Part shown: piece after piece, positions 13,342 to 59,633 of the stretch
Position numbering within the stretch: position 1 is the stretch's first letter
Layout of the letters: the number at the start of each line of letters is the position of its first letter
Source of the DNA: Bacteroidales bacterium
GTDB lineage: Bacteria; Bacteroidota; Bacteroidia; Bacteroidales; UBA1715
Direction: 5' to 3'
Length of the DNA stretch: 64,000 nucleotides
Assembly (NCBI GenBank): GCA_045599365.1
Contig: JAZRVS010000129.1
Span: 1,684 to 65,683, forward strand
The notes under the pieces: model-generated
Databases searched by the model: none
Told to the model about the DNA's origin: nothing
The model's input: the letters and a program-made list of their open reading frames with translations, nothing else
Made by a program: the position numbers and the translations under genes

Positions 13342-13536
13342 ATGAAAAAGAAAGTTGAGAATCTTCAAAAACAATTAGAGATAGCAAAACAATGTCTTAA
13401 AATGTATGGAAACAGAACTTTGTGGAATGAAAAAGGAGATTGTTTTATGACGTTTAAAGACGGCTATACTTACGCACAAGAAGCTTTGGAAAGAATGGAG
13501 GGTTGTGAATGGAAAACGAAAGAGAATTCGTTATAA
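13342..13536 (+). CDS. hypothetical protein, LQKQLEIAxxxLK motif family
   Basis: GGGAG RBS. LQKQLEIAKQCLKMYGN is shared with ORFs 14371 and 14864. Confidence 0.55.
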   Translation: MKKKVENLQKQLEIAKQCLKMYGNRTLWNEKGDCFMTFKDGYTYAQEALERMEGCEWKTKENSL

Positions 13537-47100: not shown

Positions 47101-48134
47101 TTTTGTAATTTCTTTGTCGGAGCAACCAATTCAGTAGCCAAAGCACGAGAACCTGTACCAACAACTGAACGAGCTTTCAAACCAGCATTCGTAACGGCTG
47201 CAAATAACGCAACTGATTCTTCAAGAGAAACTCCTAAATCAGCAAATGCAGAACCAGCATATTGAATACCTTGAGCAATAGTTCCAATTTCTGCTTTCGT
47301 TTTATTGACGGCAGTTGTCAAAATGTCAGCTACGTGTGCCATTTCACTTGCTTGCATATTCCAAACAGTTATGGCAGATGTGCCGACTTGCACAGATTGA
47401 GCCAAATCAGTTCCAGTTGCTGAAGCCAAAACTGCGATTGAACCTAATGCTGATTTGATTTCTTCTGCTGAAAAACCTGCTTGACCTAATGTAACTGTAG
47501 CTTTTGCTAATTCTTCGTTTGAGAAACGTGTTGATTCACCAACTTTGAAAATTGTATTTTTCAAGCTTGTCATTTGAGAATCAGTTGAGGCAGTAATAGC
47601 TTGAATGTTGGCAAATTCTTTTTGTAAAGTAGCAACTTCACCAATGCTTTCTTGAACTGCGCCAACCATAAGATTGATTGCACGATAAGAAGCATAAATT
47701 CCAAGACGCTTTCCAATATCAGAAAACGAATCTTTCATAACTTTGGCTAAACCAGTTAACTTTACTTCGGCTTCTTTTGTTACCTCACCAGTTTCTTCAA
47801 CTTTTTCATTGACTTCCTGCAAACTTTCAGCAACGGTTTTGTTGGTTTTGTCAACACCTTTTAAATTTTGATTAAATCCAGAAATCTCTGTGGCAATTCC
47901 TTTTCTCAAACCGTCACGAAGTTCGTCAAGCATAACTTTGAAATTCGTCCCACCAGCGCTAAATTGGTTTAACGCTTTTCCCAATCCTTTAATTGATTGT
48001 AAATCAAACTTTAATTGTTCAAGTTCTTTTAGTTGCTTTACTTTATCTTTTAAAACGCCGAGCTTGTCGTTTGCATTTTCGTACCCAACTAACTCTAACT
48101 CAACTCTTACTTTACTTTTATCTCCGTTTGCCAT
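44181..48134 (-). CDS. tape measure protein
   Basis: 1317 aa, helical and hydrophobic-patch rich. Sits between the chaperone pair and the gpM-like gene. Confidence 0.9.
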   Translation of the reverse strand: MANGDKSKVRVELELVGYENANDKLGVLKDKVKQLKELEQLKFDLQSIKGLGKALNQFSAGGTNFKVMLDELRDGLRKGIATEISGFNQNLKGVDKTNKTVAESLQEVNEKVEETGEVTKEAEVKLTGLAKVMKDSFSDIGKRLGIYASYRAINLMVGAVQESIGEVATLQKEFANIQAITASTDSQMTSLKNTIFKVGESTRFSNEELAKATVTLGQAGFSAEEIKSALGSIAVLASATGTDLAQSVQVGTSAITVWNMQASEMAHVADILTTAVNKTKAEIGTIAQGIQYAGSAFADLGVSLEESVALFAAVTNAGLKARSVVGTGSRALATELVAPTKKLQKQLEKLGLTLDDVDIRSRGLTNVLKTLKQAGFGSVEAFNALDRRAASFYLAATSQLNTMDMLRDAFLEEGAAMRANEIQMNTVLSRWQSLRDVMSETMNRAFAPALTIVTKLVELLTNLAGTPVGKLIGALGTLGVTFTTLKNIVLAFTKVLAVLKLKKVAEDTIAATSAIGKFTVAVKGLTTAIKAMLTSFGFWFGALQLVYSYWDDISKALGVYKKDLATVEGELQTNAQTTATVSERMTEMVEKSTLYSTNSQELRKRIIELNKSFKDEKLFLLDLSDSYEQVIAKMAEFRIQKQLEKTELLKEQQALLRTEHKGNIFDATIASFTGQGQVYKFKQDMYERLFQEVLASDEDERSAIQERIMAIKNAKERSAQLKIYNNALQVKLIDTLEDMNVSISENQFTAIDMSRNVAKFVTEQKKKFEEASSKFAKGEITEEEYNKVLLDVRETISSTYDKYNTKIKDIIEKNPNLGEIPNEVSSLFDFILDSLKGVNKTVENKIADSIKELDKEIKESSKRVEREKFFKEKGISVEVDGKKTTEELSQAVSEEKKYIEIKYKTLIEAEQEAEKKRELQRDRAFALAQVDEKATIKEHNQRLGSATRTLADELKRATQDIKRSISEIPEAREAKIQSGYLSGLSKAELSQTHEYAKTKEKIHSLELEATPKEIVLQEKLLEIQKSFAERNKVLLEGLKGNNEKKAEYNQTLETQLSIEKQILDTEERIAYLRGQTSGGKKTEELGIFDQAAEKWKKANENVKDFKQTLITATTEGIDIFAKSFTDAVKSVGDGSKSIGQSIKDMALSILKSVGDLLIELSIKALIFQALDAATDGWLKIVAKLSTGATENKAEGGIVGRQHFATGGSVRGALANRDSVNAKLMPGEFVMKKSAVSQLGEDFLYALNKDAQGTLSALQPGLTYEEKDSSGSVVNVWVVAEEQQAQMGPNDVIATISKDILTGGTTKRLIQSVVAGRK

Positions 48135-48776
48135 TTACGTTTTCCTTCATTCTAGCAACTAATTCATTCACAGATGACACATTATGAACTCGGTCTGGTG
48201 TCGGTTGTCCTTTCTTCTTTCCACCACCTAATGCCATTGAAACAATAGTAGCAAAAGTTTCGTGATTTTGCAAGAGTTTCATTTGCTCAAATTGAATAAA
48301 ACTTTCAACTCCCATAACAATTTCTCGGTATGTGAGTTGAAAGCTCAATTCTCTGAAAGTTTTTCCGAAAGCTAAAAATACACTTTTTTCAAAATCAACG
48401 TTTTTTATCCAGCTTGAGAAACATTTGAACCCATCTTGGTTGCCAGTTTCTCTGCTTTCTCCTGCAGTTGCTTTGCTTTCTGAATTTTCTCTATAAAAAA
48501 ATCGCTTACGTGTTCTCCACAGAATTCAATGATTTTATTGTAACTATCAACATCTAATGTGAAAACACTTGCTTTTTCACTAACAACTTCGCCTTTTTCG
48601 TTGTAATTTTGTAAGCAAAGTTTGACAACTTCTTCTTGAACGTTTGTGTCAACATAAATTGCAGGAAGATTGTCAATCCCACCAATTGTCGTGATAATTC
48701 GGGATAATAAACCTGCATACATAACAATTTCAACGTCTTTGTCTGCCACTTTTAAAATTAAGCTGTCATTCGCCAT
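48118..48776 (-). CDS. gpG-T-like fusion via putative -1 programmed frameshift
   Basis: A run of seven T on the coding strand (48501-48495) lies in-frame as gaT TTT TTT. By hand translation the -1 frame is open from there to 48118 and overlaps the tape-measure start. Confidence 0.5.
48405..48776 (-). CDS. tail assembly chaperone (gpG-like)
   Basis: 123-aa ORF directly upstream of the tape measure, following its own promoter. Confidence 0.7.
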   Translation of the reverse strand: MANDSLILKVADKDVEIVMYAGLLSRIITTIGGIDNLPAIYVDTNVQEEVVKLCLQNYNEKGEVVSEKASVFTLDVDSYNKIIEFCGEHVSDFFIEKIQKAKQLQEKAEKLATKMGSNVSQAG

Positions 48777-48810
48777 AGTAATTCCTTTCTTTTTAGTTGA
48801 ACGATAACTA

Positions 48811-48839
48811 AATATAATCTTTTTAAATTAACTTGTCAA
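48811..48839 (-). promoter_or_regulatory. sigma70-type promoter for the chaperone / tape-measure genes
   Basis: The minus strand reads TTGACA (48839-48834), 17 nt, TATATT (48816-48811). Confidence 0.55.
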
Positions 48840-48846
48840 CTAAAAA

Positions 48847-48870
48847 AGAGAGCTCGTTTCCGAACTCTCT
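48847..48870. terminator. bidirectional-looking terminator hairpin after the major tail gene
   Basis: AGAGAGCTCG-tttc-CGAACTCTCT (9 of 10 bp paired), flanked by an A-run upstream and a T-run downstream. On the minus strand a TTTTT follows the hairpin. Confidence 0.65.
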
Positions 48871-48893
48871 TTTCACAACCATCTTAATACAAA

Positions 48894-49724
48894 TTATCGT
48901 GTTAAAATGTATGCGTTTGCGATTGAAGATAAACCTCTGAAATAATCAAACATAGCGTCTGATTTTGTCAAAGCATAAGGTTTGATTTCAAACGGCATAT
49001 TGCTGTAATCGTCTGTCGTGAAACCAAGTGTCATACCAGAAGTGATTTTTGCTTTTGGAATGATGATTGTCACTGGTTCGTTTCCGTTTGGTAACATACC
49101 AACAATTTTCACACCTAAATATGGTTGTGGTTTGTCTGAACCAACTGGAATTACGTTGACAGTTTGCACTTTGTCACCAGCTGAGAAGTTCCAACCCAAT
49201 GGGATAGCTTCTGATAATGTGATTGTAACTTTGTTTGTTGCAAAAGTAGCAGATTCAACAACTGCTAAATACACTTTATCAAATTCTTCAGTTGAAGAAG
49301 CTTGTAACATAATTTTTGTTCCTTTAGGGAATTTGCTTGTAATGTCACTGTCAGCTACGATTGAAACAGTAGTTGCAGAAGAACCACCTGTGACAGCTGC
49401 TGATAAAGCGTATGTGCCACCAGTAGCGAATTCGTTACCGTCTAATTGTGCAGCATAAGCCAAGTTGCTAGCTGTGTATTCATAAACTTCTGTGCTGATT
49501 GTTGTGTCAACGCCTGTAACTTGTGAGTCAACTGTCGTACCACGAATGCCGTATTTCAATTCAACTTCACTTGTTTCAGATGTCATTGTAACATTTTTAA
49601 CTAAACCCAAAGAGTGTTCTTCAGGGTTTAACTCTAAAATTTTATCCATTGGACCGACCATAAGTGTAGCCACACCAATGTTAAATTTATCTGTGATAGG
49701 TCCACCAACGCCTGTACTACTCAT
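48894..49724 (-). CDS. major tail (tube) protein, putative
   Basis: 276-aa ORF immediately upstream of the chaperone pair, followed by a terminator hairpin. Called from position only. Confidence 0.6.
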   Translation of the reverse strand: MSSTGVGGPITDKFNIGVATLMVGPMDKILELNPEEHSLGLVKNVTMTSETSEVELKYGIRGTTVDSQVTGVDTTISTEVYEYTASNLAYAAQLDGNEFATGGTYALSAAVTGGSSATTVSIVADSDITSKFPKGTKIMLQASSTEEFDKVYLAVVESATFATNKVTITLSEAIPLGWNFSAGDKVQTVNVIPVGSDKPQPYLGVKIVGMLPNGNEPVTIIIPKAKITSGMTLGFTTDDYSNMPFEIKPYALTKSDAMFDYFRGLSSIANAYILTR

Positions 49725-49762
49725 TTTTAAATTCCTTTCCTATGAATAACGTTATTTCACTC

Positions 49763-49791
49763 TTGCATTTTATAAAAATGTGTGTTATATT
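49763..49791 (+). promoter_or_regulatory. sigma70-type promoter of the antisense RHH-like mini-gene
   Basis: TTGCAT 49763-49768, 17 nt, TGtTATATT 49783-49791. Confidence 0.5.
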
Positions 49792-49820
49792 TCAATAGTT
49801 ATTTTTTAACAGGAGTGAAC
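49790..49820. repeat. 31-bp element, copy A (TTTCAATAGTTATTTTTTAACAG core)
   Basis: 23-nt perfect core and 28 of 31 positions identical to 55650-55680. Confidence 0.8.
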
Positions 49821-49824
49821 AAAA

Positions 49825-50004
49825 ATGATTGAAGAAAAAAGAGCATTAACAATTTCAATTCCAGCAAGTTATTACAATTTAATTGAAAAAACAAGACTTG
49901 AAGAAAAACGTACTAAAGTTCAACAAATCTTGTTTCTTCTTGATAAGGGAATAACTGCTTATTACGGAAAACCTATCTCGTCTTTGCTGAAAGAAGACAA
50001 CTAA
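49825..50004 (+). CDS. ribbon-helix-helix-like small protein (59 aa, below cutoff)
   Basis: AGGAGTG RBS. Hand translation MIEEKRALTISIPASYYNLIEKTRLEEKRTKVQQILFLLDKGITAYYGKPISSLLKEDN. KRALTISIP plus a helix is a typical RHH N-terminus. Confidence 0.5.
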   Translation: MIEEKRALTISIPASYYNLIEKTRLEEKRTKVQQILFLLDKGITAYYGKPISSLLKEDN

Positions 50005-50440
50005 CGTCAACATATTGAGCCATTCGGTTGTCGGCTTTTGACATAGGCATAACTTCAGTTCCAGAAGTAATGTTTAACGAAGTTATTATTTCACTTTCTT
50101 CGTTAAATACGTTTATTGTGTTTCCAGAAAGAAATCTTGCAAAAACATAAGAAACTATCTTTGAAAGACGAATTCCATTTTTGTCGTTCATTGTTGAGCA
50201 AACAACATAAAACGAATTGCGAACAACTCCGTCTTCATCATAGGTCGCATAAGAACGCAATCCAATGACGTCGTTTTGAATTAACTCAAAATTTTCTGCG
50301 TGTGAATCAAAGTCAAAAAAAGTGGCGTCTTTTGATATTTCTAATTCTTTTACCACTCTGCAACAATCAGAAATAGCTCTGATTACAGATGAACGTGATA
50401 AATAATAAATCTTTGCGTTAAATTCCTGCTGTTTATTCAT
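49973..50440 (-). CDS. hypothetical head-tail connector or tail completion protein
   Basis: Packed late ORF between the capsid and tail genes. Confidence 0.5.
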   Translation of the reverse strand: MNKQQEFNAKIYYLSRSSVIRAISDCCRVVKELEISKDATFFDFDSHAENFELIQNDVIGLRSYATYDEDGVVRNSFYVVCSTMNDKNGIRLSKIVSYVFARFLSGNTINVFNEESEIITSLNITSGTEVMPMSKADNRMAQYVDVSCLLSAKTR

Positions 50441-50450
50441 TTACAACTCC

Positions 50451-51101
50451 TTATTTTAATTCTAATTTATAACCATTTCTTTTCAATTCCTCGTTTATCT
50501 TTCGTGGAATTTTATATTTAACATAATATTGAGCCATAGGCTCAAACAAAGGACGCAATTCTTCGTTGCTTTTTCCCTCACTTCCACTCACAACACCTGT
50601 AATTTTTGTTTCTTGTGTTTTACTTCCTTTTCCAGATTCGTTTTGTATAAATCTCTTCGTTCTATAATGTCCCAAACTAACATCTAAAGCAAATCTTCTA
50701 TAATAACTATTTCTTATTTTAATAGGCTGATATTTAATAAGTTTAGTGCTTGGAAAATAATCTTCAACAGAAACAGTTGTCAAAAAATCTTGTAAGTGAG
50801 TAACTCCTTCTTCACCACTTCTCCATTTTCTTCCGTTTCCTTTTGCAGCTCGTGTTGTTGATTTCAAATTTTTCCAATGGATATTTGAGAAAACGGCACT
50901 ATAGTTCTCTTCTCCAGTGTTTCTCGGTTTGAAATATTTATCCATAGCTGATGAAACTTCTCTGAAATATCCTTCTTGAACTCTTCTCGTCACAGAATAA
51001 GCAATTTTTGCAATATCTTCAAAGCGAGATTCACTAATGCGAATCGCTTTTTCCATAACTATTTCACTTATTTTTTCTATGAAATCATTGTCTTTGGACA
51101 T
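50451..51101 (-). CDS. hypothetical head-tail connector protein
   Basis: Packed late ORF. Confidence 0.5.
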   Translation of the reverse strand: MSKDNDFIEKISEIVMEKAIRISESRFEDIAKIAYSVTRRVQEGYFREVSSAMDKYFKPRNTGEENYSAVFSNIHWKNLKSTTRAAKGNGRKWRSGEEGVTHLQDFLTTVSVEDYFPSTKLIKYQPIKIRNSYYRRFALDVSLGHYRTKRFIQNESGKGSKTQETKITGVVSGSEGKSNEELRPLFEPMAQYYVKYKIPRKINEELKRNGYKLELK

Positions 51102-51639
51102 TTGCTACAGTTGCTCCTACATAATGTTCGGAACGCATTACAACAAATCTTTCGTCTTTGTCATTGACAAGAATATCATTAACTTGCAATTCTTTGTTCG
51201 TTACGACATTGTATTTGTCAAACTTGATTTGCATTGTGTCCATACTTTTTCCGTCATCTTCAAACGCACAATACAAGTTGCCTAAATCTTCATATTCACC
51301 AGAGTCACTTAATTCACCAGAAACAGGGTCTTCAATGAACTTTGCACGAAGCCAGTTCATCTTTGTTTCAACGATTTTTAAAGTGAATAATTTTTGAGTT
51401 GAACCTAAACTTTCCTCTGGCATATCGTCCATACACATAACTGCACGATTGAAATTAGTGAAAAAAATGTCACCAACTTTTACATTCGCTGTCGGAGATG
51501 TGTATAAAATCGTACCACCAATGGCGTAGTTTGTGTAACGACCAGTTAAAGGAGATTTACCAATCAATCCTTTGAAAAAAGAACCGTCTTCTTTTCTATA
51601 AACTTTATAAAAGTTGCGTCCAACTCTCTTTAAGTCCAT
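51085..51639 (-). CDS. hypothetical head-tail connector protein
   Basis: Packed late ORF. Confidence 0.5.
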   Translation of the reverse strand: MDLKRVGRNFYKVYRKEDGSFFKGLIGKSPLTGRYTNYAIGGTILYTSPTANVKVGDIFFTNFNRAVMCMDDMPEESLGSTQKLFTLKIVETKMNWLRAKFIEDPVSGELSDSGEYEDLGNLYCAFEDDGKSMDTMQIKFDKYNVVTNKELQVNDILVNDKDERFVVMRSEHYVGATVANVQRQ

Positions 51640-52388
51640 TATTGACCTCCAGTAAATATGTCGTCAAAACTTCCGATTACAAATCCAAGTGTCATACTGT
51701 CAGCTGTGTCGCCAGTTATTTCGTCAGTTAGCTCTTCTAATTCACCTTTTAAACGTGAGATTAAATCCATAAAATCGTCTTTTGTCATTGTAAAACGAGT
51801 TTGACTTACAATAGAGTCCGATTCAATCTTTGCAACAATAATCGGTAAAGCAACTTCTAACGAAATTGCAGAAGTCAATGCAATCATGCGATTCGCTTTT
51901 TGTGAAGTTAATCCAAAAGAAGTTATTGCTTCGTCAAACTCATCTCCAAGATTTTGCTTAACTTTTAAATACGATGAATACAAGTCAAGCATATCGTCAG
52001 TTATAACGTTTGAAGTTAAACCGAATATATTTCTAACGTCATCTTTTGTGACCGTGTACGGAACAAATTTTATAATTCTATACGGAACTCTCTTGTGTAT
52101 GTAACTTCCATTAAGCGTACAAGTTACGTCAACAAAACGAATCGTAAAATCAGAACTTTCTTCAATAGTATTTATATCACAAGGAAGTGGAATTTGAACA
52201 ATAGACGGATTTGTTGCGTTTATTGCTAAATCAATTTCTTTGAAATTCTCAAGTGGAACTCCGTTTGTATCTAAAATTGAATACACAATGCTGTCACGCC
52301 CTTCTTGAAACGAAATAAAATTTTCTTCTCCGTTTTCAATAAGAGGTATTTCAATCGTGTGACTTGTTGCAACAAATACGTCAATCAT
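51639..52388 (-). CDS. hypothetical head-associated protein
   Basis: Packed late ORF. Confidence 0.5.
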   Translation of the reverse strand: MIDVFVATSHTIEIPLIENGEENFISFQEGRDSIVYSILDTNGVPLENFKEIDLAINATNPSIVQIPLPCDINTIEESSDFTIRFVDVTCTLNGSYIHKRVPYRIIKFVPYTVTKDDVRNIFGLTSNVITDDMLDLYSSYLKVKQNLGDEFDEAITSFGLTSQKANRMIALTSAISLEVALPIIVAKIESDSIVSQTRFTMTKDDFMDLISRLKGELEELTDEITGDTADSMTLGFVIGSFDDIFTGGQ

Positions 52389-52390
52389 TC

Positions 52391-52723
52391 TTATTTACCT
52401 TTTCTTGATTTTGTTTTTGGTTGAGCTTCTTCTTTAACTTCAGCTACTACTTCTTCTTTAATTTCAGCTACTACTTCTTCTTTTTTCTCAAACTTTTTAA
52501 TATATTCTTTAGGGCTATCGCTCCCAAATTCTTTAATAAAAGCCTTATAATCGTCGTCATTTGCTTCGTCGTCCACATAAAAAAGAGAAATTAAGTTTCT
52601 GCCTTCCCAATTATCCATAACAGGATAAATGTCTTTGACACGATAACGAGATGAATCAATAAAATCAGCGTCAGGCAAAACTAAAACTGTTGATTCACTA
52701 TTTGTTTTAACTAAAACTTTCAT
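52391..52723 (-). CDS. hypothetical protein with EEVVAE(I/V)KEE repeat tail
   Basis: First ORF after the capsid-gene hairpin. C-terminal direct repeat EEVVAEIKEEVVAEVKEE. Confidence 0.5.
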   Translation of the reverse strand: MKVLVKTNSESTVLVLPDADFIDSSRYRVKDIYPVMDNWEGRNLISLFYVDDEANDDDYKAFIKEFGSDSPKEYIKKFEKKEEVVAEIKEEVVAEVKEEAQPKTKSRKGK

Positions 52724-52744
52724 TTTATCTCCTTTAAGTTTTAA

Positions 52745-52767
52745 AGCCTCCTCTTTTGGAGGAGGCT
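52745..52767 (-). terminator. terminator/attenuator-like hairpin after the major capsid gene
   Basis: AGCCTCCTC / GAGGAGGCT, a 9-bp perfect stem with a 5-nt loop. Only a short T-run (TTT) follows on the minus strand. Confidence 0.5.
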
Positions 52768-52777
52768 CTATTTAGTT

Positions 52778-53947
52778 TTAAGCTTGTGTTCTATATGTTA
52801 ACAAGTAACGAGTTTTCGGGAAAATCAAACTGTAACCTGTGTTCTCTGTACGAACATAAGTAATTGTTTGGTTCATAACTGCTCTTGTTTCTTCTTCAAT
52901 ACGAGAACCAGCTTCCACTAATTCTTCAATCGTTTCTTCTTTATTGAAGCATAACAATTTGCCAGCTGGAACATTTGTGTTCAACACAAATTTTAATGGC
53001 ATAAAGAGGTTTTGTTGTAAGGATAAACCAACACCACCTTTGCCAGCTAATTGGTCAGCATTGTAAGCTGAAGAAATAGCAGCTGTACCAAATAATTTGA
53101 CAAATTGAGCATAAGCGTCTAAGTTACCAGCGATTGTGTTAATTGGGTTTTTGTCACGTAATGCACGCATAGCGATTTCCATTAACATATCGTATGTTAA
53201 ATCAGAACTTGTCGTAGCACCAGTTGCCGTAACAGCGATAGCACCAGCATTTGTGCCGTCACCATTTAACATAATACCTGTACAAGCAGATAATTTAGAA
53301 GCGTTCAAGTCACGTTCAATACGAGCAGCAAACGGAGTAATTAAATCTAAAGCGTTTCTGCGATTGAATTCGTATGTCATTTCAACACCAGAACCGTGTT
53401 TGTAAATTTTCACGGAACGTTCGCTCATTGTCACACGATGGACAGGGATGCGAGAACCTTCTGGAACACCGTATGTTTTACGGTCTTCGTCTGTGTCTTT
53501 ACCAATAACACGGACTAATTCAACGCCACGAATTGTACGTGAACCAGAAATCATATTTTCAACGCTTTCTAAGTTGTCCAAACGATTTTCCCAACGTAAC
53601 ACAGAGTCAATCGTATATGGGAATAAAATACGAGTACCTGGTTTTGTTGTGAATGTGTCAGAAGCTTGAGCTAATGTGATTTGATTACGGTAATCGTTTT
53701 TACCAGGTAATCCCAATTTAGCACAAGTCATTTCATAACCACTTAAACCGTTAGCGTGAGCTTTTGCTTCTTCGCCTTCTGATAAATCAACTGCTAAATC
53801 CAAAAAGTCTTTTAAGTTGATGCCATAATCAGCTGCTTCACGAGATAATGATAAACCAGCTTCGCGAGATTTTGTTTCAGAATCGTCTAACAAAGGTTTT
53901 ACGATGTCTTCAAGTTTTCTTTTTTTAATTTTTGTAATCGGTTCCAT
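52778..53947 (-). CDS. major capsid protein
   Basis: 389 aa, after the scaffold and DUF2190-like genes and followed by a hairpin. Called from position and size. Confidence 0.75.
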   Translation of the reverse strand: MEPITKIKKRKLEDIVKPLLDDSETKSREAGLSLSREAADYGINLKDFLDLAVDLSEGEEAKAHANGLSGYEMTCAKLGLPGKNDYRNQITLAQASDTFTTKPGTRILFPYTIDSVLRWENRLDNLESVENMISGSRTIRGVELVRVIGKDTDEDRKTYGVPEGSRIPVHRVTMSERSVKIYKHGSGVEMTYEFNRRNALDLITPFAARIERDLNASKLSACTGIMLNGDGTNAGAIAVTATGATTSSDLTYDMLMEIAMRALRDKNPINTIAGNLDAYAQFVKLFGTAAISSAYNADQLAGKGGVGLSLQQNLFMPLKFVLNTNVPAGKLLCFNKEETIEELVEAGSRIEEETRAVMNQTITYVRTENTGYSLIFPKTRYLLTYRTQA

Positions 53948-53958
53948 TTTCTAGCTCC

Positions 53959-54369
53959 TTATAAAACACAAACTGTTACTGTTTTGTTTGTTGTGTCAAC
54001 TGCCCAAACACGAAGTCCTTGAACGGCTGTGTCACCAGTTGTTTTCTTACGAACTTTACCACCAGCAGCACCAACAACCATATCACCAACAGAGATTGAT
54101 TGACCGTCAGCATAAGCTAATTTGTAGCCACCTTTTGTTTCAACAGTAGCGACAACAGAACCACCTTGTTCAGTTCTATCTTCAACCATAAAGAGTCTTC
54201 CTAAAATTTCGTCACCGTCAGTTGCAATTTTAACAGATTCTGCAGCAGATGTATCTTGTGTAACAGCTAATCCGATTACAGCGTCAATATCAGAAACAGT
54301 ATCAGTCAAATTGAATGCGAGTCTAAAATCAGGAAAAACTTGTCCATTTAATGTAATTTCAAATGCCAT
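53959..54369 (-). CDS. DUF2190-like head decoration/cement protein, putative
   Basis: 136 aa. Pattern ...IGLAVTQDTSA...GEILGRLF...VGDMVVGAAGGKV resembles the DUF2190 family, usually found just upstream of the capsid gene. Confidence 0.55.
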   Translation of the reverse strand: MAFEITLNGQVFPDFRLAFNLTDTVSDIDAVIGLAVTQDTSAAESVKIATDGDEILGRLFMVEDRTEQGGSVVATVETKGGYKLAYADGQSISVGDMVVGAAGGKVRKKTTGDTAVQGLRVWAVDTTNKTVTVCVL

Positions 54370-54386
54370 TTTTTGTTCCTTTCATA

Positions 54387-55607
54387 TTATTTGACTTGAA
54401 ATGCCTTTAGTTGCTCAGCACTGTATTCGCCAAAGAAAGCTTCTTTTTTAGAATCTTTGTTTTCAAATTGTGCTGACACACCACCTGCTGGGATTAAGGA
54501 AGCCAATAATTGCTGACCTTTTCCGAGCACTTCAGAAATCCCATTCAAGTCTTCTGGGACTTCTTCGTTATTTGAGCCAGAAGCCACTAAAACTTTTTTA
54601 ACTTCTTCTCTCAAAAAATTCATAACCTTACCACTTTCCTCTTTTTCAGAAGATAATTGACTTTCTAATTCGTCTTTACCTTCTTTTAAAGATAAAAGTT
54701 CAGTTTCTTTTTCAGCTAATTTAGCTTCTAAGTCAGCAATTTGACTTTCTTTTTCAGCTAATTTAGCTTCCATTTCTTTGATTTTTTCTTGTAAGTCAAG
54801 TTTGGCATTAGCTTCAGCTAATTTTGTTTCCAAATCTTTGACTTTTTCCTCTAAATCCACAGCAGGAGCTACCACTTCTTCTGTGGCTTGAGATTGTACT
54901 AATTCTTCGTTTGCCATTAAAGCTTTCTCCATTTTTTCAAAACAAACAACCAATTTGTTTGGCTTACCACCACTAGCAGCCAACAAATAACTTTGTTCTT
55001 TTGGATTATCCAAAATTTTTGGTTTGTTTGCTGCACCTCTGTTGACTATTGACGTTTCTGAAAAATGTTCAGCACCGTTCAATATCAAATGAGTTCCGTC
55101 TTTTCCAATAGTATGTCCTTCTGGACAAGTCATTGAAAACCAATGTTCCATATCAGCTTCATCACTCATATAATCAAAGCCACATTTATTGCATTTTGCT
55201 TCTTTTGCTGTGAAACTGACTGAAACTTCGTCTAACACATTGTTCTCAATTTTAGCAATAACAGATTTTGTTTCTTCTGTTTTTAAAATCGCCATATAAA
55301 GAATTAAAGATTTTACACCACCTTCATCTTGAACTCGTGAAAAGAAACATCTTCCAACACTCAAAGACTCGTGGTCGTGCATAATAGCCACACCAACATT
55401 GTTATTAGTATTGTTAACTTCATCTGATAAATCAAAAATAACTTGCTCTGTTGGAACAGCTCCGTCAAAAATTGTTCCTTGATGTAAAGGTTCTGTACTG
55501 ATTGCCCTAACTTTAATACAATAAAAATTTGAAGGTTCTACTTCTTCGCCAAATTTGTCTTTAAATCTGTCTAACAACTCACCACTTAAAATCAATTCTT
55601 TACTCAT
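54387..55607 (-). CDS. scaffolding protein (possible N-terminal protease-like domain)
   Basis: Lies between portal and capsid. Cys pairs CNKCGF...CPEGH. C-terminal coiled-coil with repeated KLAE(A/K)..(K/E)L. Confidence 0.6.
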   Translation of the reverse strand: MSKELILSGELLDRFKDKFGEEVEPSNFYCIKVRAISTEPLHQGTIFDGAVPTEQVIFDLSDEVNNTNNNVGVAIMHDHESLSVGRCFFSRVQDEGGVKSLILYMAILKTEETKSVIAKIENNVLDEVSVSFTAKEAKCNKCGFDYMSDEADMEHWFSMTCPEGHTIGKDGTHLILNGAEHFSETSIVNRGAANKPKILDNPKEQSYLLAASGGKPNKLVVCFEKMEKALMANEELVQSQATEEVVAPAVDLEEKVKDLETKLAEANAKLDLQEKIKEMEAKLAEKESQIADLEAKLAEKETELLSLKEGKDELESQLSSEKEESGKVMNFLREEVKKVLVASGSNNEEVPEDLNGISEVLGKGQQLLASLIPAGGVSAQFENKDSKKEAFFGEYSAEQLKAFQVK

Positions 55608-55649
55608 AATATACCTCGCTTTTTCATTGATAAAACATTTTAGTTAAAT

Positions 55650-55680
55650 TTTCAATAGTTATTTTTTAACAGAACTTAAC
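55650..55680. repeat. 31-bp element, copy B
   Basis: See 49790-49820. It lies between the portal stop and the scaffold start. Confidence 0.8.
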
Positions 55681-57149
55681 TATTTGTTCACATTGGAGTC
55701 AGCTGAGTCTGCGTCTTGAGGTGTTAAAGAACGACCTAAGGAATTGTCACGAGTTGTTTCACCAACAGCTGATTCATCGCCAGCACTATCTTGAGCGTCT
55801 AAAAAGTTAGTGCCAGATAATTCTGGAGCTGTATCAAGTGGAGCTCGTCCATACATTTCCATAGCGTATTCTTCGTCTGAAATAATACCCAATGACAAAT
55901 CTTTTTGTAAGCGAGTTTGCTTTTGAATACGCATAGCTTCCAACTCCAAGTCTGGACGAAGTTCAGCTGGAGCAAACCAGAAGGTAACAAAACCGTCAAA
56001 ACCAGCCATACGTAATGCGAGTGTCATACAACGTGACAACAAGTCAGCAATCGGCTTGTTTAATGTGTCAGCACTCAAACTGAAAATACGGCTTTCAACT
56101 GAAGCTGTATTAACGCCAGCTTCGCCACGACCTAAAACAGTAGGTACAACTTTCAAGCTGGCTTGGTTTTGAGCGTTCAATGTTTCAATAATTTCTTCAA
56201 CTTGTAACGCAGCACCTGGATTTTTCTCGTTTAAGATAGAAACTTTAATGCTGTCTGTGTGAGCAAACGGAGAATCAGCACGAATATCAGAAAATCTAGC
56301 TGCAATTTGATTTAATTGACGATTTACCCACTCGTTAAATTTACGTTTGTCGTTTTTCAATTCGTCTGGACAACGATTTTTCAAAATTTCTTCAACAACT
56401 TCCAATGTAACTCTTGGAAAACCAGTAATTCTCATAATTCTATACAAATCATTGATAACCGTTTGTCTTGCTGCAATCGTGTTAATCGCTGAAGTGAAGA
56501 AAGAATATGAATAAACATCTGTCGGGTCTTGTTTATATCTCGTTGTGAAAAATGTCGGAATATCCAAACTCGTTTCGTCAACGTTATCTGTTTCTTGAAC
56601 TGGCTTAAACTCACCAGAAGATTTTTCAATAAATTTGACAGTTGCCATATCAACACAACGAATTGTTGAAGGTTGCATTGTCTTATCATAAATAAGTTCA
56701 GCTCCGACAGAACCTCTCATTAACAACAAATAACGCAAGTTGTTCAAAAATTCATTTAAAGACGGCTTTGATTGATAACCCAAAGTATAATCGGTAATTG
56801 AAAAAATGCGATAAAGAAGAGAATATAATAATGATTGTCCGTCTTTGCTGACTTGCCCTTGCGAATCTCTAACTTGATATAATAATTTTGTATCGGCAAC
56901 TGTTAAATAAGCATTAGCTGCAGCACTAACATCTGGGTCAGTGCGCATAAGATTTTTAACCAACTCCATACTGTTATCTGAAACACGGCTTTCTTGAATG
57001 TCAGTTAAATGCTCTTGATATTCGGGTAAAGTTAACGCTTCACTTGTGTTTGAAGGGTCAAAACTGTCAGTTATACTTACCCCACCAGCTCTTTGTTTGC
57101 TTTTAGGCAGGATAAACTCAAACATTTTACTTAAACTTGTCGTTGCCAT
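55680..57149 (-). CDS. portal protein
   Basis: 489 aa, immediately downstream of the large terminase. Confidence 0.75.
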   Translation of the reverse strand: MATTSLSKMFEFILPKSKQRAGGVSITDSFDPSNTSEALTLPEYQEHLTDIQESRVSDNSMELVKNLMRTDPDVSAAANAYLTVADTKLLYQVRDSQGQVSKDGQSLLYSLLYRIFSITDYTLGYQSKPSLNEFLNNLRYLLLMRGSVGAELIYDKTMQPSTIRCVDMATVKFIEKSSGEFKPVQETDNVDETSLDIPTFFTTRYKQDPTDVYSYSFFTSAINTIAARQTVINDLYRIMRITGFPRVTLEVVEEILKNRCPDELKNDKRKFNEWVNRQLNQIAARFSDIRADSPFAHTDSIKVSILNEKNPGAALQVEEIIETLNAQNQASLKVVPTVLGRGEAGVNTASVESRIFSLSADTLNKPIADLLSRCMTLALRMAGFDGFVTFWFAPAELRPDLELEAMRIQKQTRLQKDLSLGIISDEEYAMEMYGRAPLDTAPELSGTNFLDAQDSAGDESAVGETTRDNSLGRSLTPQDADSADSNVNK

Positions 57150-57150
57150 T

Positions 57151-58866
57151 TTACCATCGCTTTCGTATTGTATTGTTAAATCTTCTGTTAGAATACTCTA
57201 ATAAATCGTCATTGTAAAGCTCTTTTTGAGCTCCACCAAAATCTAACCACTCTCTCGTTTCTTTTGTTTCGTTCAAACCAATTTCAAAGTTTCCGATTTC
57301 AATGGCTATGAACGAATATGCTAATGCGTGGAAAAAGTGGTCGTTCCCTCTAATCTTTTTCCAAATAGGCTGTTTGTCGGCATTGGAATCATCTCTAAAC
57401 ATATCTCTTAAATGCTCAATCAAAACATTTTGATATGTGGTGTAGCCATACAATTCCAAGAAACCAGAGTTAATTCCTTGCATAATTAAATCCAAAGCAT
57501 TAGTTCTGTTTGCTCTGTAATATGATATTTCTCCGGCAACCTCTTTTACTGGTTCAACCGTTTTACCGTAGCTATATTCAATCGGAAAAATTCTTCGGTT
57601 TGACATATCTCTTATTTCATTTGATGTCGGAGTATATGGGTATCTATCAATAGCTCCATAGACAATGTTGTATTTCTTACACAATTCTTCAACTGTCGGT
57701 TTCAACGCCTCTGGAGGAACTGCTGTGAAATAAAAAGCGTGTCTTTTACTTGTTGACAAAACAATGTGACAAGAACTACCCATATCAATTCCAATAAAAA
57801 CAGGTGTTGCACTATTTATTTCAGGAACACGACTTTCTTTCATACAAGCAATAATCGCAGATTTATCTAATCGTGTCTGCGAGTCGCTGTATTCTTCTCC
57901 TAATACGGTGTTAATTCCACGTCTTATTTCGTTTTTCTTAATAAAGTCTGCCATTGTCGTTACCAAATATCTAATTGATAAAACACTTGAAGAAAATGGT
58001 CTTACCCAATATCCGTGTGTATATCTATCAGGAAATTCGGCAACCCATTCTCGTCTATCTCCATTTGAAAGCTCTTTAATCGGCTTTCCACACTTTTCAC
58101 AGAACACGTAAGCGTTGTCTAAATCTAATCCAGCTACAATGCTTTCTGTTAATTCTGTTTTTAAATCTGTAACTTCATCTGGCAAACCTGGAATGTGAAC
58201 AAAAGCTCTGTCATACAACGGAACTTGCCAATGCCCACAATGTTCACATTTATAAAAGTATTCTCTTTTGTCAGAACTCTCATATTCCAAAGAAATTCCG
58301 TAACCAGAAAACGTTGGCGTTGAAAAACCGTGCTTTATTTTATAATCTGAACCCTGAATACGAGAATTAACTAACGCCAAGAACTCTTGGTTTGACAAAT
58401 CGTACTCGTCATTCATAATAAAGTCAACTGCAGTTGACGTAGCCGACGATTCGGTGTTCGCCGATATATATAAAAACGAATCGTTTAATTGCATAACGTC
58501 ATTATTTCTAATATCTTCTTTTCTAGCTGGAAAATCGTTATCAAAAATCGGCTTAATACGAGTTTGTGCCTGAATTTTCTTCATAACTAAATCAGGATAA
58601 GTGTATAAACCAGTAACTCCTTTGTTTCGTGCCAAGAAACCTATCATTTTTCTGTAGTTAATCTCAGATAAACCAACCTGTGATAACTTTTTAACACAAA
58701 CAGAGGGGTGCATATCGTCAGCAATCGCCTTTTGAAAGGGATATTTTGTAAAAGAAAACTTATTTCCTGCACGAGTCGTATTCGCACAAATCCAATCGCC
58801 CATTGTAGCAACTGCAGCTCTTTCTTTTAGTCTGTTTGCAAATCTTTCTAAATAGTCGTTTGCCAT
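57151..58866 (-). CDS. terL: terminase large subunit (GpA-like)
   Basis: Trimmed to MANDYLERF... with an AAGGAG RBS. VCVKKLSQVGLSEI matches the GpA-type K.aQ.G.SE ATPase motif. Cys pairs CEHCGHW...CEKCGKP. Confidence 0.85.
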   Translation of the reverse strand: MANDYLERFANRLKERAAVATMGDWICANTTRAGNKFSFTKYPFQKAIADDMHPSVCVKKLSQVGLSEINYRKMIGFLARNKGVTGLYTYPDLVMKKIQAQTRIKPIFDNDFPARKEDIRNNDVMQLNDSFLYISANTESSATSTAVDFIMNDEYDLSNQEFLALVNSRIQGSDYKIKHGFSTPTFSGYGISLEYESSDKREYFYKCEHCGHWQVPLYDRAFVHIPGLPDEVTDLKTELTESIVAGLDLDNAYVFCEKCGKPIKELSNGDRREWVAEFPDRYTHGYWVRPFSSSVLSIRYLVTTMADFIKKNEIRRGINTVLGEEYSDSQTRLDKSAIIACMKESRVPEINSATPVFIGIDMGSSCHIVLSTSKRHAFYFTAVPPEALKPTVEELCKKYNIVYGAIDRYPYTPTSNEIRDMSNRRIFPIEYSYGKTVEPVKEVAGEISYYRANRTNALDLIMQGINSGFLELYGYTTYQNVLIEHLRDMFRDDSNADKQPIWKKIRGNDHFFHALAYSFIAIEIGNFEIGLNETKETREWLDFGGAQKELYNDDLLEYSNRRFNNTIRKRW

Positions 58867-58925
58867 ATCAACTCCTTGATTTTTATAGATTAGCAAAAAA
58901 ATTTTAAAAAAGCAACATTTTTTTC

Positions 58926-58955
58926 TTGACTTATTTTGTAAAAGTGTGCCATAGT
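58926..58955 (+). promoter_or_regulatory. sigma70-type promoter of the rightward replication arm
   Basis: TTGACT 58926-58931, 18 nt, TGcCATAGT 58947-58955. GTGTGCCA is repeated at 58944 and 58954. CTTGACT (58925) pairs with AGTCAAG (58961) as an inverted repeat. Confidence 0.55.
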
Positions 58956-58986
58956 GTGCCAGTCAAGAAAAGAAAGTGAGGAAATT

Positions 58987-59433
58987 ATGAATTTATCTAA
59001 AATGTTTTCGTTGTTGAACAGACACAATGTTATCTGTTTTAACAAAAAGAACGAATTATCAAGGCATTGGATATACCAAAATTGCAATAGCATTGAAAGA
59101 AACAAATTTGTAAGAGAACTTCTCAGTTGTTTAGACGTACAAAGTGTTCGGTATGACGGTTCTTGTTTAAAGAAAAAATGTAACATTGACCGTTGTGTTA
59201 ACCCAGATTGTTATGAAGTTTGCTTTAGAAAAAAAGATTCTATATCAAACAGTTTTTCTTACGAAGATATGCTTGATTTAGCTGAAATGATTGATTTAGA
59301 GAAGATATGCCAGATTGGTGAAAAGAAATACTTAGAGATTTTCAATAATGAACAACCAGATTTTCTTAAAATAACAATGAAAGACCTTAAAAAAACAATA
59401 GAATTTGTTAAAATGAAAGAAAAGGAGATATAA
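58987..59433 (+). CDS. hypothetical Cys-rich protein (degenerate His-Me-finger-like Cx3CVNPxC)
   Basis: GTGAGGA RBS. CNIDRCVNPDCYEV resembles the C...CVNP.HL motif of HNH-type homing endonucleases but lacks the His. Confidence 0.5.
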   Translation: MNLSKMFSLLNRHNVICFNKKNELSRHWIYQNCNSIERNKFVRELLSCLDVQSVRYDGSCLKKKCNIDRCVNPDCYEVCFRKKDSISNSFSYEDMLDLAEMIDLEKICQIGEKKYLEIFNNEQPDFLKITMKDLKKTIEFVKMKEKEI

Positions 59434-59633
59434 TGTTAAAATATAATGTTAAAGAATTTGCCGAAATGTTAGGCATTTCAAGACGTACTATGTACCGATA
59501 TATTGAACGTGGTGACATTACGCCAAAAACAAACTTTAGAGGAAAACGCTTTTTCACAGCTGACCAATTGGAAGAATATCAAAACTTAATAAACGAGGAA
59601 AAAGAAAATGGAATATCCACAGATAGAATTTAA
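59433..59633 (+). CDS. MerR/excisionase-type HTH DNA-binding protein
   Basis: VKEFAEMLGISRRTMYRYIERGDI is the classical excisionase/AlpA-family HTH. Confidence 0.75.
   Translation: MLKYNVKEFAEMLGISRRTMYRYIERGDITPKTNFRGKRFFTADQLEEYQNLINEEKENGISTDRI

Follow-up and report, generated by a model that had tools for sequence, protein, structure and literature searches.

The locus analysed here poses a simple question. A 23-nt sequence is found twice in a phage region of 64,000 nt (the window, i.e. the whole stretch of DNA that was analysed), and it was asked what such a repeat does near two blocks of structural genes. The sequence TTTCAATAGTTATTTTTTAACAG is present at 49790-49812 and 55650-55672 (plus strand), and these are the only two sites in the window; no further match was obtained on either strand with up to three mismatches, and 0.00 occurrences were expected from 100 dinucleotide-preserving shuffles. 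Over 31 nt (49790-49820 versus 55650-55680), 28 positions are identical. A first-pass annotation had reported the perfect 23-mer and the 28/31 similarity, and exact and mismatch searches bore this out; the genes around both copies were also as described there, according to PHROGs annotation. On the late (minus) strand the repeat reads CTGTTAAAAAATAACTATTGAAA, and its 3' end is TTGAAA, a -35 box. The copies and the genes concerned are:

49790..49820, minus strand: copy A of the repeat (23 nt perfect, 28/31), at about -30 to -60 of the predicted major-tail promoter P_A, kept in relatives
55650..55683, minus strand: copy B of the repeat plus a third half-site, upstream part of the predicted scaffold/capsid promoter P_B, kept in relatives
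48894..49724, minus strand: major tail protein gene (PHROGs), assigned to predicted P_A
52778-53947, minus strand: major head protein gene (PHROGs)
54387-55607, minus strand: coiled-coil scaffold-like gene (PHROGs)
52778..55607, minus strand: block of scaffold-like, small virion protein and major head genes, assigned to predicted P_B
55680-57149, minus strand: portal gene (PHROGs)

The third half-site of copy B overlaps the portal stop codon. Other occurrences of TAACTATTG (12453, 17055, 30561) were rejected as additional sites; they are located within genes or at gene ends and lack the array described below.

It had been stated earlier that no sigma70-like -35/-10 pair is obvious at the repeats. 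Such a pair does exist, since the repeat ends in TTGAAA and TAAAAT is present 17 nt downstream at copy A. The following promoter and terminator elements were recognised:

49790..49795, minus strand: P_A -35 hexamer TTGAAA, within the repeat (promoter scan, site 49795..49767, 10/12 matches)
49767..49772, minus strand: P_A -10 hexamer TAAAAT, 17-nt spacer (promoter scan)
55650..55655, minus strand: P_B -35 hexamer TTGAAA, within the repeat, register identical in all relatives
55627..55632, minus strand: P_B -10-like hexamer TATCAA (4/6, without the final T), 17-nt spacer, read from the sequence and unlisted by the promoter scan
48841..48872, minus strand: intrinsic terminator 3' of the major tail gene, 14-bp stem as folded, GAAA loop, T run (-19.9 kcal/mol, z = -5.7)
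52745..52767, minus strand: strong hairpin 3' of the major head gene (-19.9 kcal/mol, z = -6.1; scan and folding)

At both copies TTGAAA matches the TTGACA-type -35 hexamer in five of six positions. Transcription from P_A is predicted to start near 49760 (inferred start), leaving about 36 nt of leader before the ATG at 49724, and from P_B near 55620, with a predicted leader of only about 13 nt. In the alignment, relatives show TAAAAT, TTTAAT, TGTAAT or TAATAT at the -10 of P_A, spaced again by 17 nt, while TAACCT, TAACTT, TAATCT or TATCTT occupy this position of P_B in other clades. In the window phage the -10 of P_B (TATCAA) is poor and the predicted leader short, and P_A comes close to the consensus and might work unregulated; these observations count against the regulated arrangement favoured below. 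Behind the major tail gene, a terminator is annotated at the matching position in phage JWF, and the hairpin behind the major head gene is a putative terminator or attenuator closing the P_B unit. A layout of hairpin-closed units is annotated in phage JWF as well. From these sequence features, the repeat very probably constitutes the upstream half of each of two internal late-strand promoters of the sigma-A/sigma-70 type. The proposal of a transcription-control site common to two high-demand structural gene blocks is supported, the composite being kept in syntenic relatives. A phage-encoded sigma factor was considered and rejected because the sole candidate, a 224-aa protein giving the only Sigma70_ECF match and consisting of repeated region-4-like HTH units, lacks region 2, and because both promoters look sigma-A-like.

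The remainder of the repeat is not random sequence. Short half-sites resembling TAGTTA/TAACTA, two in copy A and three in copy B, follow one another at distances of 10-11 bp within the 17-30 bp that precede the -35 box:

49796..49801, no strand assigned: copy A half-site 1, TAGTTA on the plus and TAACTA on the late strand, abutting the -35 box
49807..49812, no strand assigned: copy A half-site 2, TAACAG on the plus and CTGTTA on the late strand, 11 bp centre-to-centre from half-site 1
55656..55661, no strand assigned: copy B half-site 1, TAGTTA
55667..55672, no strand assigned: copy B half-site 2, TAACAG
55677..55682, no strand assigned: copy B half-site 3, TAACTA on the plus strand, 10 bp from half-site 2

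The half-sites flank an A-tract at both copies, AAAAAA at -42 to -47 on the non-template strand, and this part is A-rich in all relatives. A-tract and -35 box would also make up an ordinary UP-element promoter, a further point against the favoured arrangement. The dyad CTGTTA-AAAAA-TAACTA spans -52 to -36, with its centre near -44, and abuts the -35 box. In copy B, half-site 3 is the perfect inverted partner of half-site 1 at a 15-nt spacer; the pattern TAGTTW-N15-WAACTA has this single site in the window versus 0.12 expected, and, being palindromic, matches it on either strand. The small dyad GTTA-t5-TAAC, which had been pointed out before, is near chance frequency on its own: GTTW-N5-WAAC is present at 16 sites, or 32 strand-hits, versus 28 strand-hits expected from shuffles (both strands), each site being counted twice because the pattern is its own reverse complement. 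It is a degenerate instance of the larger phased array.

To follow the element in syntenic relatives had been suggested in the first-pass annotation, and it was found there: metagenomic relatives with portal identities as low as about 50% have the same composite at both syntenic sites. These relatives were gathered via look-ups in a protein database, which yielded about 1300 portal homologues, and of contigs, and by a portal alignment search of IMG/VR. The exact 23-mer is absent from IMG/VR, megablast of 48500-57000 against INPHARED phages yielded no match, and no relatives were confirmed by a single-protein portal search of IMG/VR and metagenome contigs. From relatives whose portals are 50-75% identical, 25 non-redundant sites were aligned; the site sequences numbered 27 and came from 15 genomes. 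AACTA and the TTG of the -35 box are in fixed register in all 25 sites, and in most of these T predominates at -12 and -7. Information content is highest at G-33 (2.56 bits) and C-38 (2.28), followed by T-35/-34, A-39/-40/-43 (1.6), G-50 (1.27) and G-60 (0.94), values to be read with the facts in mind that some of the conservation at -39 to -33 was imposed by the alignment anchor and that related sequences are not independent. Spacer and -10 are far less conserved in these sites than array and -35.

Matches of upstream 6-mers to the reverse complement of the promoter-proximal half-site peak sharply at spacers of 5 nt (3.72/6) and 15 nt (3.88/6), which differ by one helical turn; at most other offsets 1.3-2.0 of 6 positions are matched. 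Both spacers are used across the relatives, in direct and inverted orientation. Compensatory changes were detected in L017, where AACGA is accompanied by TCGTT or CCGTT at both sites, and in L032, where AACTG is accompanied by CAGT. L102 (67% portal identity) has an identical stretch of 27 nt at site A, in which the 23-mer is contained, while its flanks have diverged. In distant relatives, different genome-specific elements are common to the same two sites, namely repeats of GCATAG (L042), ATAACAC (L036) or TATGCAC (L096), and GGTTTAAATTAAACC (L062). A/T richness alone fails to explain the conserved C-38, G-50 and G-60, the inverted half-sites at fixed spacers and the compensatory changes. It is likely that a phased protein-binding array is present, and not merely an UP element.

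A candidate for the binding protein is encoded next to copy A:

49825..50004, plus strand: Arc-like ribbon-helix-helix (RHH) protein, 59 aa, candidate ligand (family HMM E = 4.7e-9)
49763..49791, plus strand: putative RHH-gene promoter TTGCAT-17-TGtTATATT (extended -10), read from the sequence

The reading frame is antisense to the late operon and starts 13 nt past the 23-mer of copy A. It is the sole member in the window of a family whose HMM was built from 23 syntenic homologues, the window protein being left out. Direct Pfam searches of the window protein gave 0 families at E <= 0.01 and at E <= 0.1, and its assignment as RHH protein runs through the family HMM, which counts against the favoured arrangement. 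The family profile matches Arc (E = 6.5e-7), AmrZ (3qoq, E = 1.8e-4, the second-best solved-structure match), Mnt (E = 7.8e-4) and CopG, and Pfam Arc is matched by 13/24 family members. In 49 of 58 related loci the RHH gene is antisense and directly upstream of the tail gene, and the HMM search detected it nowhere else in those loci. In phage JWF the RHH gene is gp017. In the window it is convergent with the upstream late genes, with an overlap at 49973-50004. The putative RHH promoter is unlisted by the scan because its -35 matches only 3/6. It overlaps P_A completely, and its predicted start near 49798 is inside half-site 1; that copy A overlaps the leader of the antisense gene, as noted before, is supported. 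TTGCAT-17-TAACTT/TAAGTT/TATATT is kept in L008, L010, L012, L014 and L102, the geometry of RHH promoter and array in the same lineages and in L026, and in L018 the -35 box of the RHH promoter is placed between half-sites.

The repeat is accordingly read here, with a probability of roughly 60%, as a composite promoter/operator tying both structural-gene promoters to the Arc-like RHH protein, and the same confidence is given to this protein being the ligand of the array. It had already been proposed as ligand, and three observations make it the best candidate: its synteny, the geometry of the RHH promoter, and the fact that gene and element were lost together in two lineages. The array is present in all low-GC RHH-positive lineages examined, L103 having a variant; in the RHH-less lineages, of which the comparison includes two only (L016/L101 and L024/L030), promoters are kept at both sites and the half-site array is absent. 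A match between sites A and B with p <= 0.01 was obtained for 17/44 RHH-positive and 1/7 RHH-negative genomes, which is not statistically decisive; A-B identity is higher within (0.68) than between genomes (0.62, permutation p = 0.02-0.04). Beta-strand residues of the RHH proteins were compared with the half-site variants in search of a simple code, and no clear correspondence emerged.

In the proposed circuit, P_A would serve the major tail gene up to the terminator, and P_B the scaffold, small virion protein and major capsid genes up to the strong hairpin. The array would be the operator of the 59-aa protein, whose dimers would bind cooperatively along one face of the helix. At copy A the RHH promoter and P_A would occupy the same DNA, with one operator for both. 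Since the predicted RHH start lies in half-site 1, on shared DNA, binding would shut off RHH synthesis, and it would also decide the use of that DNA by RNA polymerase for the tail gene. Copy B would couple the capsid block to the same protein.

Parts of this arrangement are known from other viruses. In P22, Arc acts from a single operator on two promoters that diverge and overlap; RHH proteins occupy DNA as dimers of dimers (PMC2724298). The P22 immI region (Arc/Mnt, Pant and Pmnt) likewise combines a small RHH protein of the Arc family with subsites that are spaced by about one helical turn and bound by cooperating dimers, and with one operator over divergent overlapping promoters, one of which makes the regulator, as is predicted here (PMC2724298). 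In contrast, the targets here are structural genes instead of an antirepressor, a second operator copy is found 5.9 kb away at another promoter, and the array is upstream of the structural-promoter -35, whereas the P22 operator is inside the promoter core. SvtR of SIRV1 and AvtR of AFV6 are virus RHH proteins binding their own promoter and that of a virion structural gene; AvtR is able to act as activator and as repressor, and RHH proteins can oligomerise along degenerate sites (PMC5569661). A virus-encoded RHH protein acting on its own and a structural-gene promoter is predicted here as well, but SvtR and AvtR work on archaeal TBP/TFB-dependent promoters, and gene order and operator position differ. 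No account of such a promoter/operator plus RHH module was found in the literature searched.

The sign of control is less clear. If the RHH protein binds, positive control would come close to an even chance, negative control would be somewhat less probable, and a dual role is rather unlikely. With positive control, binding would switch transcription from the RHH promoter to P_A and would activate P_B by contact. Lambda cI at OR2/PRM and Mu Mor and C at middle/late promoters use activator sites abutting the -35 box, and these phage proteins, which have helix-turn-helix folds, turn on later genes. The sites here are similar, with the dyad centre at about -42 to -44 and the proximal half-site near -38 touching the -35 box; however, the candidate ligand is an RHH and not an HTH or Mor/C-type protein, and P_A matches 10/12. 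Mor/C-dependent promoters are without a usable -35 box, whereas TTGAAA matches 5/6. For the RHH fold a positive role has a precedent, because AmrZ (AlgZ) of Pseudomonas, an Arc-like RHH protein, both activates and represses, but AmrZ is a chromosomal global regulator with unrelated targets and activation sites far upstream.

Negative control by the same protein through the same operator, which is contained within the probability given above for the composite operator, is possible but taken by itself doubtful. Early RHH protein on the UP/-35 edge of P_A, P_B and its own promoter would keep the structural promoters low, with relief by late antisense transcription through the RHH gene or by titration on replicated genomes. 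The antisense gene, convergent with late genes, is placed such that late transcription would silence it. The near-consensus P_A is in accordance with this variant, and in relatives without the RHH gene both promoters are used although their hexamers are of no better quality. Most of the RHH proteins characterised act as repressors, which also makes the positive sign less likely. Arc represses both Pant and Pmnt, which overlap (PMC2724298), and SvtR represses its own and a structural-gene promoter, proposed to prevent premature expression (PMC5569661). Against negative control, the array is upstream of the -35 box in an invariant register, with its centre near -44 and that of the proximal half-site near -38.5, the -10 of P_B is weak in the clade of the window phage, and a relief mechanism has to be added. 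Operators of typical RHH repressors overlap -35 to +1, and a centre near -44 is the classical activator position, as for lambda cI at PRM and Mu Mor/C.

A wider version of positive control by the RHH protein is tentative and rather unlikely to hold in full. It supposes a timer for structural genes across a whole family of siphoviruses of about 65-85 kb, with hosts from low-GC (apparently Firmicutes-type) bacteria to Proteobacteria. The product of the Arc-like gene embedded antisense in the late operon would bind the phased half-sites abutting the -35 box and act positively, which is unusual for the fold. With two promoters that overlap fully and point in opposite directions, it would redirect transcription from the RHH gene to the tail-tube gene, and it would turn on the capsid-block promoter 5.9 kb away, and operator pairs would co-evolve with the RHH protein in each lineage.

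The composite operator would be unnecessary if a strong-promoter module, A-tract UP element plus -35, were simply used twice without a dedicated regulator; selection for a strong promoter, or gene conversion taking place occasionally between copies A and B, would then keep them similar. This is unlikely, but several observations agree with it. The A-rich tract is directly upstream of a 5/6 -35 box at both sites, in the manner of the non-template A-tracts at about -40 to -47 in UP elements of strong promoters of bacteria and phages, and A-tract plus TTG persists even in relatives infecting Proteobacteria. RHH-less phages keep the A-tract and TTGCAA at both sites, and these alone render the A-B match of L016 significant. 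TCAAC motifs at site B of L012 and L020 resemble features of site A, a hint of conversion. UP elements are read via A/T-rich minor-groove shape, however, and would leave unexplained the conserved C-38, G-50 and G-60, the inverted-repeat peaks at exactly 5 and 15 nt, the compensatory changes in L017 and L032, and the GC-rich genome-specific repeats common to both sites in distant relatives.

Further DNA-binding proteins are encoded in the window, which weakens the case for the RHH protein, and the array could be the operator of one of them:

13509-14183: 224-aa protein with repeated sigma-region-4-like HTH units
3525-3827: RHH_4-domain protein
8061-8411: Cro/C1-type HTH protein
59433-59633: HTH_17/MerR-like protein

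Tandem HTH units could indeed read half-sites one turn apart. Nevertheless, a ligand among these four candidates is improbable: no linkage to site A or B exists for any of them, L016 has lost the array but keeps the HTH_17 gene, and the Arc-like gene is the sole regulator syntenic with site A family-wide, its promoter being embedded in the array.

An RNA element boosting the structural proteins, or an antiterminator target, as considered in the first-pass annotation, or another leader/intercistronic structure or processing site in the late transcript, is very improbable: copy B is situated in the portal-scaffold intercistronic region, and would be part of any read-through transcript, and copy A in the RHH mRNA leader, but shuffled sequences fold as well as the copies do (-1.1 to -7.6 kcal/mol, z = +0.8 to -1.2), no terminator or hairpin was detected at either copy by terminator scan and folding, and neither copy has an Rfam match. 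The sole Rfam match in 48500-56000 is at chance level (52745-52836), far below the gathering score. Copy A is upstream of the predicted late start and would therefore be absent from tail mRNA made from P_A, and half-sites at 5- and 15-nt spacers in direct and inverted orientation fit protein phasing and not a single hairpin.

If the composite promoter/operator is real, it would explain how proteins needed in hundreds of copies, scaffold, capsid and tail tube, are supplied in a widespread but little-studied phage family: two promoter-to-terminator cassettes would be nested in the late operon and tied to one small regulator. A 59-aa antisense reading frame and two 30-bp sequences would become a concrete, testable regulator-operator pair, for which cultured relatives are available in Achromobacter phage JWF, Caulobacter phage Seuss and Acinetobacter phage TCUP2199. 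RHH-DNA recognition might be decoded with the aid of the dozens of operator/protein pairs that co-vary in nature, and in metagenomic phages an antisense RHH gene together with paired elements would mark the promoters of tail-tube and capsid genes.

A 23-nt sequence, TTTCAATAGTTATTTTTTAACAG, is present in two exact copies at 49790-49812 (copy A, upstream of the major tail gene) and 55650-55672 (copy B, in the portal-scaffold region), and 28 of 31 positions are identical if both copies are extended to 31 nt. These values, already given in the first-pass annotation, were reproduced. Further copies with up to three mismatches were not detected on either strand of the window, and none are expected from shuffled sequences. 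Read on the late strand, the repeat is CTGTTAAAAAATAACTATTGAAA, the terminal six bases of which form a -35 hexamer. The G+C content of the window is about 34%, early genes are carried on the plus strand, and a 68,118-bp NCBI contig carries the portal gene of the window. The gene context on the minus, or late, strand was confirmed by PHROG and Pfam scans:

57151-58896, minus strand: large terminase
55680-57149, minus strand: portal
54387-55607, minus strand: coiled-coil scaffold-like protein, 406 aa
53959-54369, minus strand: small virion protein
52778-53947, minus strand: major head protein
48894-49724, minus strand: major tail protein
downstream of the major tail gene, minus strand: tape-measure chaperone and tape measure

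After the 123-aa chaperone gene, a 76-aa ORF overlaps the tape-measure start (48118-48776, minus strand), which is the layout usual for programmed-frameshift chaperone pairs.

From the sequence features described here, we conclude that the repeat represents a predicted composite promoter/operator. The first-pass annotation saw no obvious -35/-10 pair at either site; for copy A this does not hold, and for copy B it is open to doubt. Copy A is part of TTGAAA-17-TAAAAT (10 out of 12 matches in a promoter scan), and transcription from this promoter, P_A, is predicted to start near 49760, yielding a leader of 36 nt up to the major tail ATG. The corresponding promoter at copy B, P_B, reads TTGAAA-17-TATCAA with a poor -10 box lacking the final T, and its predicted leader to the scaffold ATG is short, about 13 nt. 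The unit of each promoter is closed by a strong hairpin, at 52745-52767 after the major head gene and at 48841-48872, with a T run, after the tail gene (both -19.9 kcal/mol, z about -6). Terminators are annotated at the same two positions in Achromobacter phage JWF. Directly after the tail-gene terminator, a near-consensus promoter, TTGACA-17-TATATT (48839..48811), would serve the downstream tail genes. Its -35 context TTGACAAGT (within 48811-48872, minus strand) recurs at 17321, 17061, and 2136 on the plus strand, a recurrence suggesting that strong promoters of host type form a class here.

A close relative was not found among deposited phages. The nearest named ones are Achromobacter phages 2-1 (48% portal identity) and JWF (46%), Caulobacter phage Seuss, and Acinetobacter phage TCUP2199. 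Portal homologues were numerous (1319 at E <= 1e-30, top identity 75%), all of them metagenomic. The surrounding DNA was compared for 11 portal homologues, 80 IMG/VR loci from the portal alignment, and a few other loci, designated L with a number; most are metagenomic contigs and not independent samples. Two syntenic sites were compared, site A upstream of the major tail gene and site B from portal to scaffold. This search of related phages, suggested in the first-pass annotation, revealed that the element recurs upstream of scaffold/capsid and tail genes in low-G+C relatives. In every one with a small antisense gene, the same composite is found at both sites in the order A-tract, AACTA, TTGAAA-like hexamer, 17-nt spacer, and -10-like hexamer. 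Information content, determined from 25 non-redundant sites, is highest at G-33, C-38, T-35/-34, and A-39/-40/-43, followed by G-50 and G-60, with part of the conservation from -39 to -33 imposed by the anchor pattern of the alignment and -50 and -60 unaffected. Spacer and -10 are weakly conserved among these sites. At site A of L102 (67% portal identity), 27 nt including the entire 23-mer are identical to the window and the flanks diverge.

Upstream of the -35 box, the plus strand of copy A reads TTTCAA[TAGTTA]TTTTT[TAACAG] and that of copy B TTTCAA[TAGTTA]TTTTT[TAACAG]AACT[TAACTA], half-sites being bracketed and their centres spaced 11 and 10 bp. Half-site 3 of copy B overlaps the portal stop codon and is the perfect inverted partner of half-site 1; TAGTTW-N15-WAACTA is contained in copy B only in the window (0.12 expected). 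The small dyad noted earlier is not distinctive, since bare GTTW-N5-WAAC is common by chance in the window. When the proximal half-site was reverse-complemented and compared with the 6-mers upstream of it, sharp peaks appeared at spacers of 5 nt (3.72/6) and 15 nt (3.88/6) over a background of 1.3-2.0, and a minor broad peak at 10-11 nt. The 5- and 15-nt peaks correspond to a phasing of one helical turn. At some sites, two left half-sites in direct orientation are combined with an inverted right one, as in [TAGTTT]ATTT[TAGTTT]AAAAA[AAACTA]TTGAAA at site B of L018 and site A of L026. Compensatory changes are seen in L017, where AACGA at both sites is matched by TCGTT or CCGTT in the left half-site, and in L032 (AACTG with CAGT).

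Over positions -65 to -30, A-B identity amounts to 0.68 within genomes versus 0.62 between genomes, a slight but significant difference (p = 0.02-0.04), and A and B match better than shuffles (p <= 0.01) in 17 of the 44 non-redundant genomes carrying the small gene. The elements common to the two sites are quite different in high-G+C relatives, where, for example, phased repeats of GCATAG, ATAACAC or TATGCAC, or the palindrome GGTTTAAATTAAACC, lie beside sigma-70-like hexamers. Such genome-specific, phased, G/C-containing repeats cannot be accounted for by an UP element and a -35 box alone, but can be by a co-evolving DNA-binding protein.

The candidate ligand is a 59-aa ORF at 49825-50004 on the plus strand, antisense to the late genes. 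It shows no direct Pfam match and aligns with antisense ORFs at the same position in relatives. The profile of this family matches solved structures of Arc (E = 6.5e-7, Arc-derived construct pArc), AmrZ, Mnt, and CopG, all pointing to a ribbon-helix-helix (RHH) protein; Pfam Arc is matched by 13 of 24 family members, and in JWF the antisense gene is annotated as encoding an Arc-like DNA-binding domain protein. An HMM from which the window protein had been excluded detected the 59-aa ORF (E = 4.7e-9) as sole match among 392 ORFs of the window. This HMM found one gene per locus in 49 of the 58 loci covering the tail gene and none elsewhere in those loci; the gene is antisense throughout and, in all cases but one, immediately upstream of the tail gene. 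In the Seuss-like L042 and L096, the antisense protein upstream of the major tail gene comprises 130-151 aa with two tandem RHH units, and the common A-B element is made up of direct repeats recurring every 10 nt (GCATAG-N4, TATGCAC-N3), which hints at fused-dimer RHH proteins pairing with direct-repeat operators. The 3' ends of the RHH ORF and a 155-aa late gene overlap convergently by 32 nt (49973-50004); therefore, late and RHH transcription must collide or yield complementary RNAs.

For the RHH gene, a likely promoter was read from the sequence:

49763-49791, plus strand: TTGCAT-17-TGtTATATT

The extended -10 is good and the -35 weak (3/6), which explains its absence from the scan list. 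TTGCAT with the 17-nt spacer is kept in L008, L010, L012, L014, and L102. P_A runs over the same stretch of DNA in the opposite direction; the two predicted starts are separated by about 38 bp, that of the RHH gene falling inside half-site 1. In the L017-L019 clade, the -35 box of the RHH promoter is located between half-sites instead. In either geometry, a protein on the array would occlude the RHH promoter, an autoregulatory arrangement usual for this protein family. Lineages devoid of RHH (L016/L101 and L024/L030) have kept promoters at both sites, such as TTGCAA-17-TGcTATTGT at both sites of L016, and are devoid of the half-site array. These two independent co-losses link gene and array in a suggestive but not decisive way. 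Site B of L012 and L020 contains TTTTCAAC, the sequence that serves other clades as -35 box of the RHH promoter at site A; neither the antisense gene nor a -10 box is present beside it, and it may be left over from an exchange of sequence between the sites.

The predicted major tail mRNA leader opens with a palindrome (49745-49756), whose position, not sequence, is conserved in L102, L014, L016, L101, L017-L019, L001, and L103: AATAACGTTATT in the window, GTATGAAATA-GAAAT-TATTTCATAC in L102, TTAAAACATGTTTTAA in L014, and GAGA-GAAA-TCTC in L017 and L019. The hairpin of the window is weak (-2.7 kcal/mol). Since phages lacking the RHH gene have the palindrome too, a 5' stem-loop of the mRNA is a more likely interpretation than an RHH site.

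The HTH_17 protein as ligand of the array is disfavoured because L016, in which the array is absent, retains its gene, along with another, dissimilar repeat in front of the terminase gene. In the window, this HTH_17/MerR-like gene (59433-59633, 66 aa) adjoins the direct repeat TGGCACAC-TA-TGGCACAC with a 10-nt period (58944-58961, minus strand), located between terminase and a divergent 159-aa gene just upstream of the terminase-operon promoter region. This direct repeat, kept as GACACAC-TAT-GACACAC in L008, L010, L012, L014, and also in L016, which lacks RHH, probably serves another regulator as operator. A phage sigma factor was also considered. The sole sigma-like match, a 224-aa protein (13509-14183, plus strand) with several repeated sigma-70-region-4-like HTH units (Sigma70_ECF, E = 1.7e-5; HTH_28; Sigma70_r4), is not a true sigma factor, since region 2 is missing; its gene contains 87-nt DNA repeats (13811-13897 and 13937-14023). 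The early region specifies a second, unrelated RHH-domain protein (3525-3827, plus strand, 100 aa; Pfam RHH_4, E = 2.7e-7) and tandem paralogous genes (4825-5235 and 5239-5646; 136 and 135 aa) with DNA stretches 74-79% identical. The RNA element proposed earlier is contradicted by folds of either strand over the repeat, which are no better than shuffles, and by Rfam, matching at neither copy. A terminator is dismissed, a G+C-rich hairpin being present at neither copy, and chance was ruled out by the uniqueness search against shuffles and the half-site pattern counts.

All results derive from sequence analysis, in which transcription starts and binding are predictions; at this level, promoter elements, phased half-sites, conservation at two sites, the Arc-like family of the neighbouring protein, and the overlap of its promoter with P_A are established. 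Binding of the Arc-like protein to the array is assigned a probability of roughly 0.6. Its effect on P_A and P_B is interpretation, not a direct reading of the sequence. The array geometry argues for a positive role: the dyad is centred near -44 and its proximal half-site near -38.5, their register with the -35 box being invariant, and lambda cI at PRM and Mu Mor/C act from this position. Occlusion of the RHH promoter would also release P_A, which overlaps it, and the weak -10 of P_B would fit as well. Precedent within the family speaks for a negative role: Arc represses both Pant and Pmnt, which are overlapping promoters (PMC2724298), and among RHH proteins of archaeal viruses, SvtR represses the promoter of its own gene and that of a structural gene, AvtR both activating and repressing (PMC5569661). 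The near-consensus P_A and relatives coping without the protein would be consistent with repression. Given binding, positive control is tentatively put first, negative control is nearly as plausible, and a dual role appears unlikely.

Full-text literature searches did not reveal a description of this antisense-Arc/paired-operator module. Its components, sigma-A promoter, A-tract, RHH operator, and autoregulation, are familiar; what appears to be new is the arrangement, an Arc-like gene antisense inside a structural operon and paired, co-varying operators at capsid-block and tail-tube promoters. Although an Alistipes genome was the bin of one relative, the window, with its strong Shine-Dalgarno sites and promoters of TTGACA/TATAAT type, probably comes from a phage of a Firmicutes-like host. 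The arrangement is kept across phages whose hosts range from apparently Firmicutes-type bacteria to Proteobacteria.
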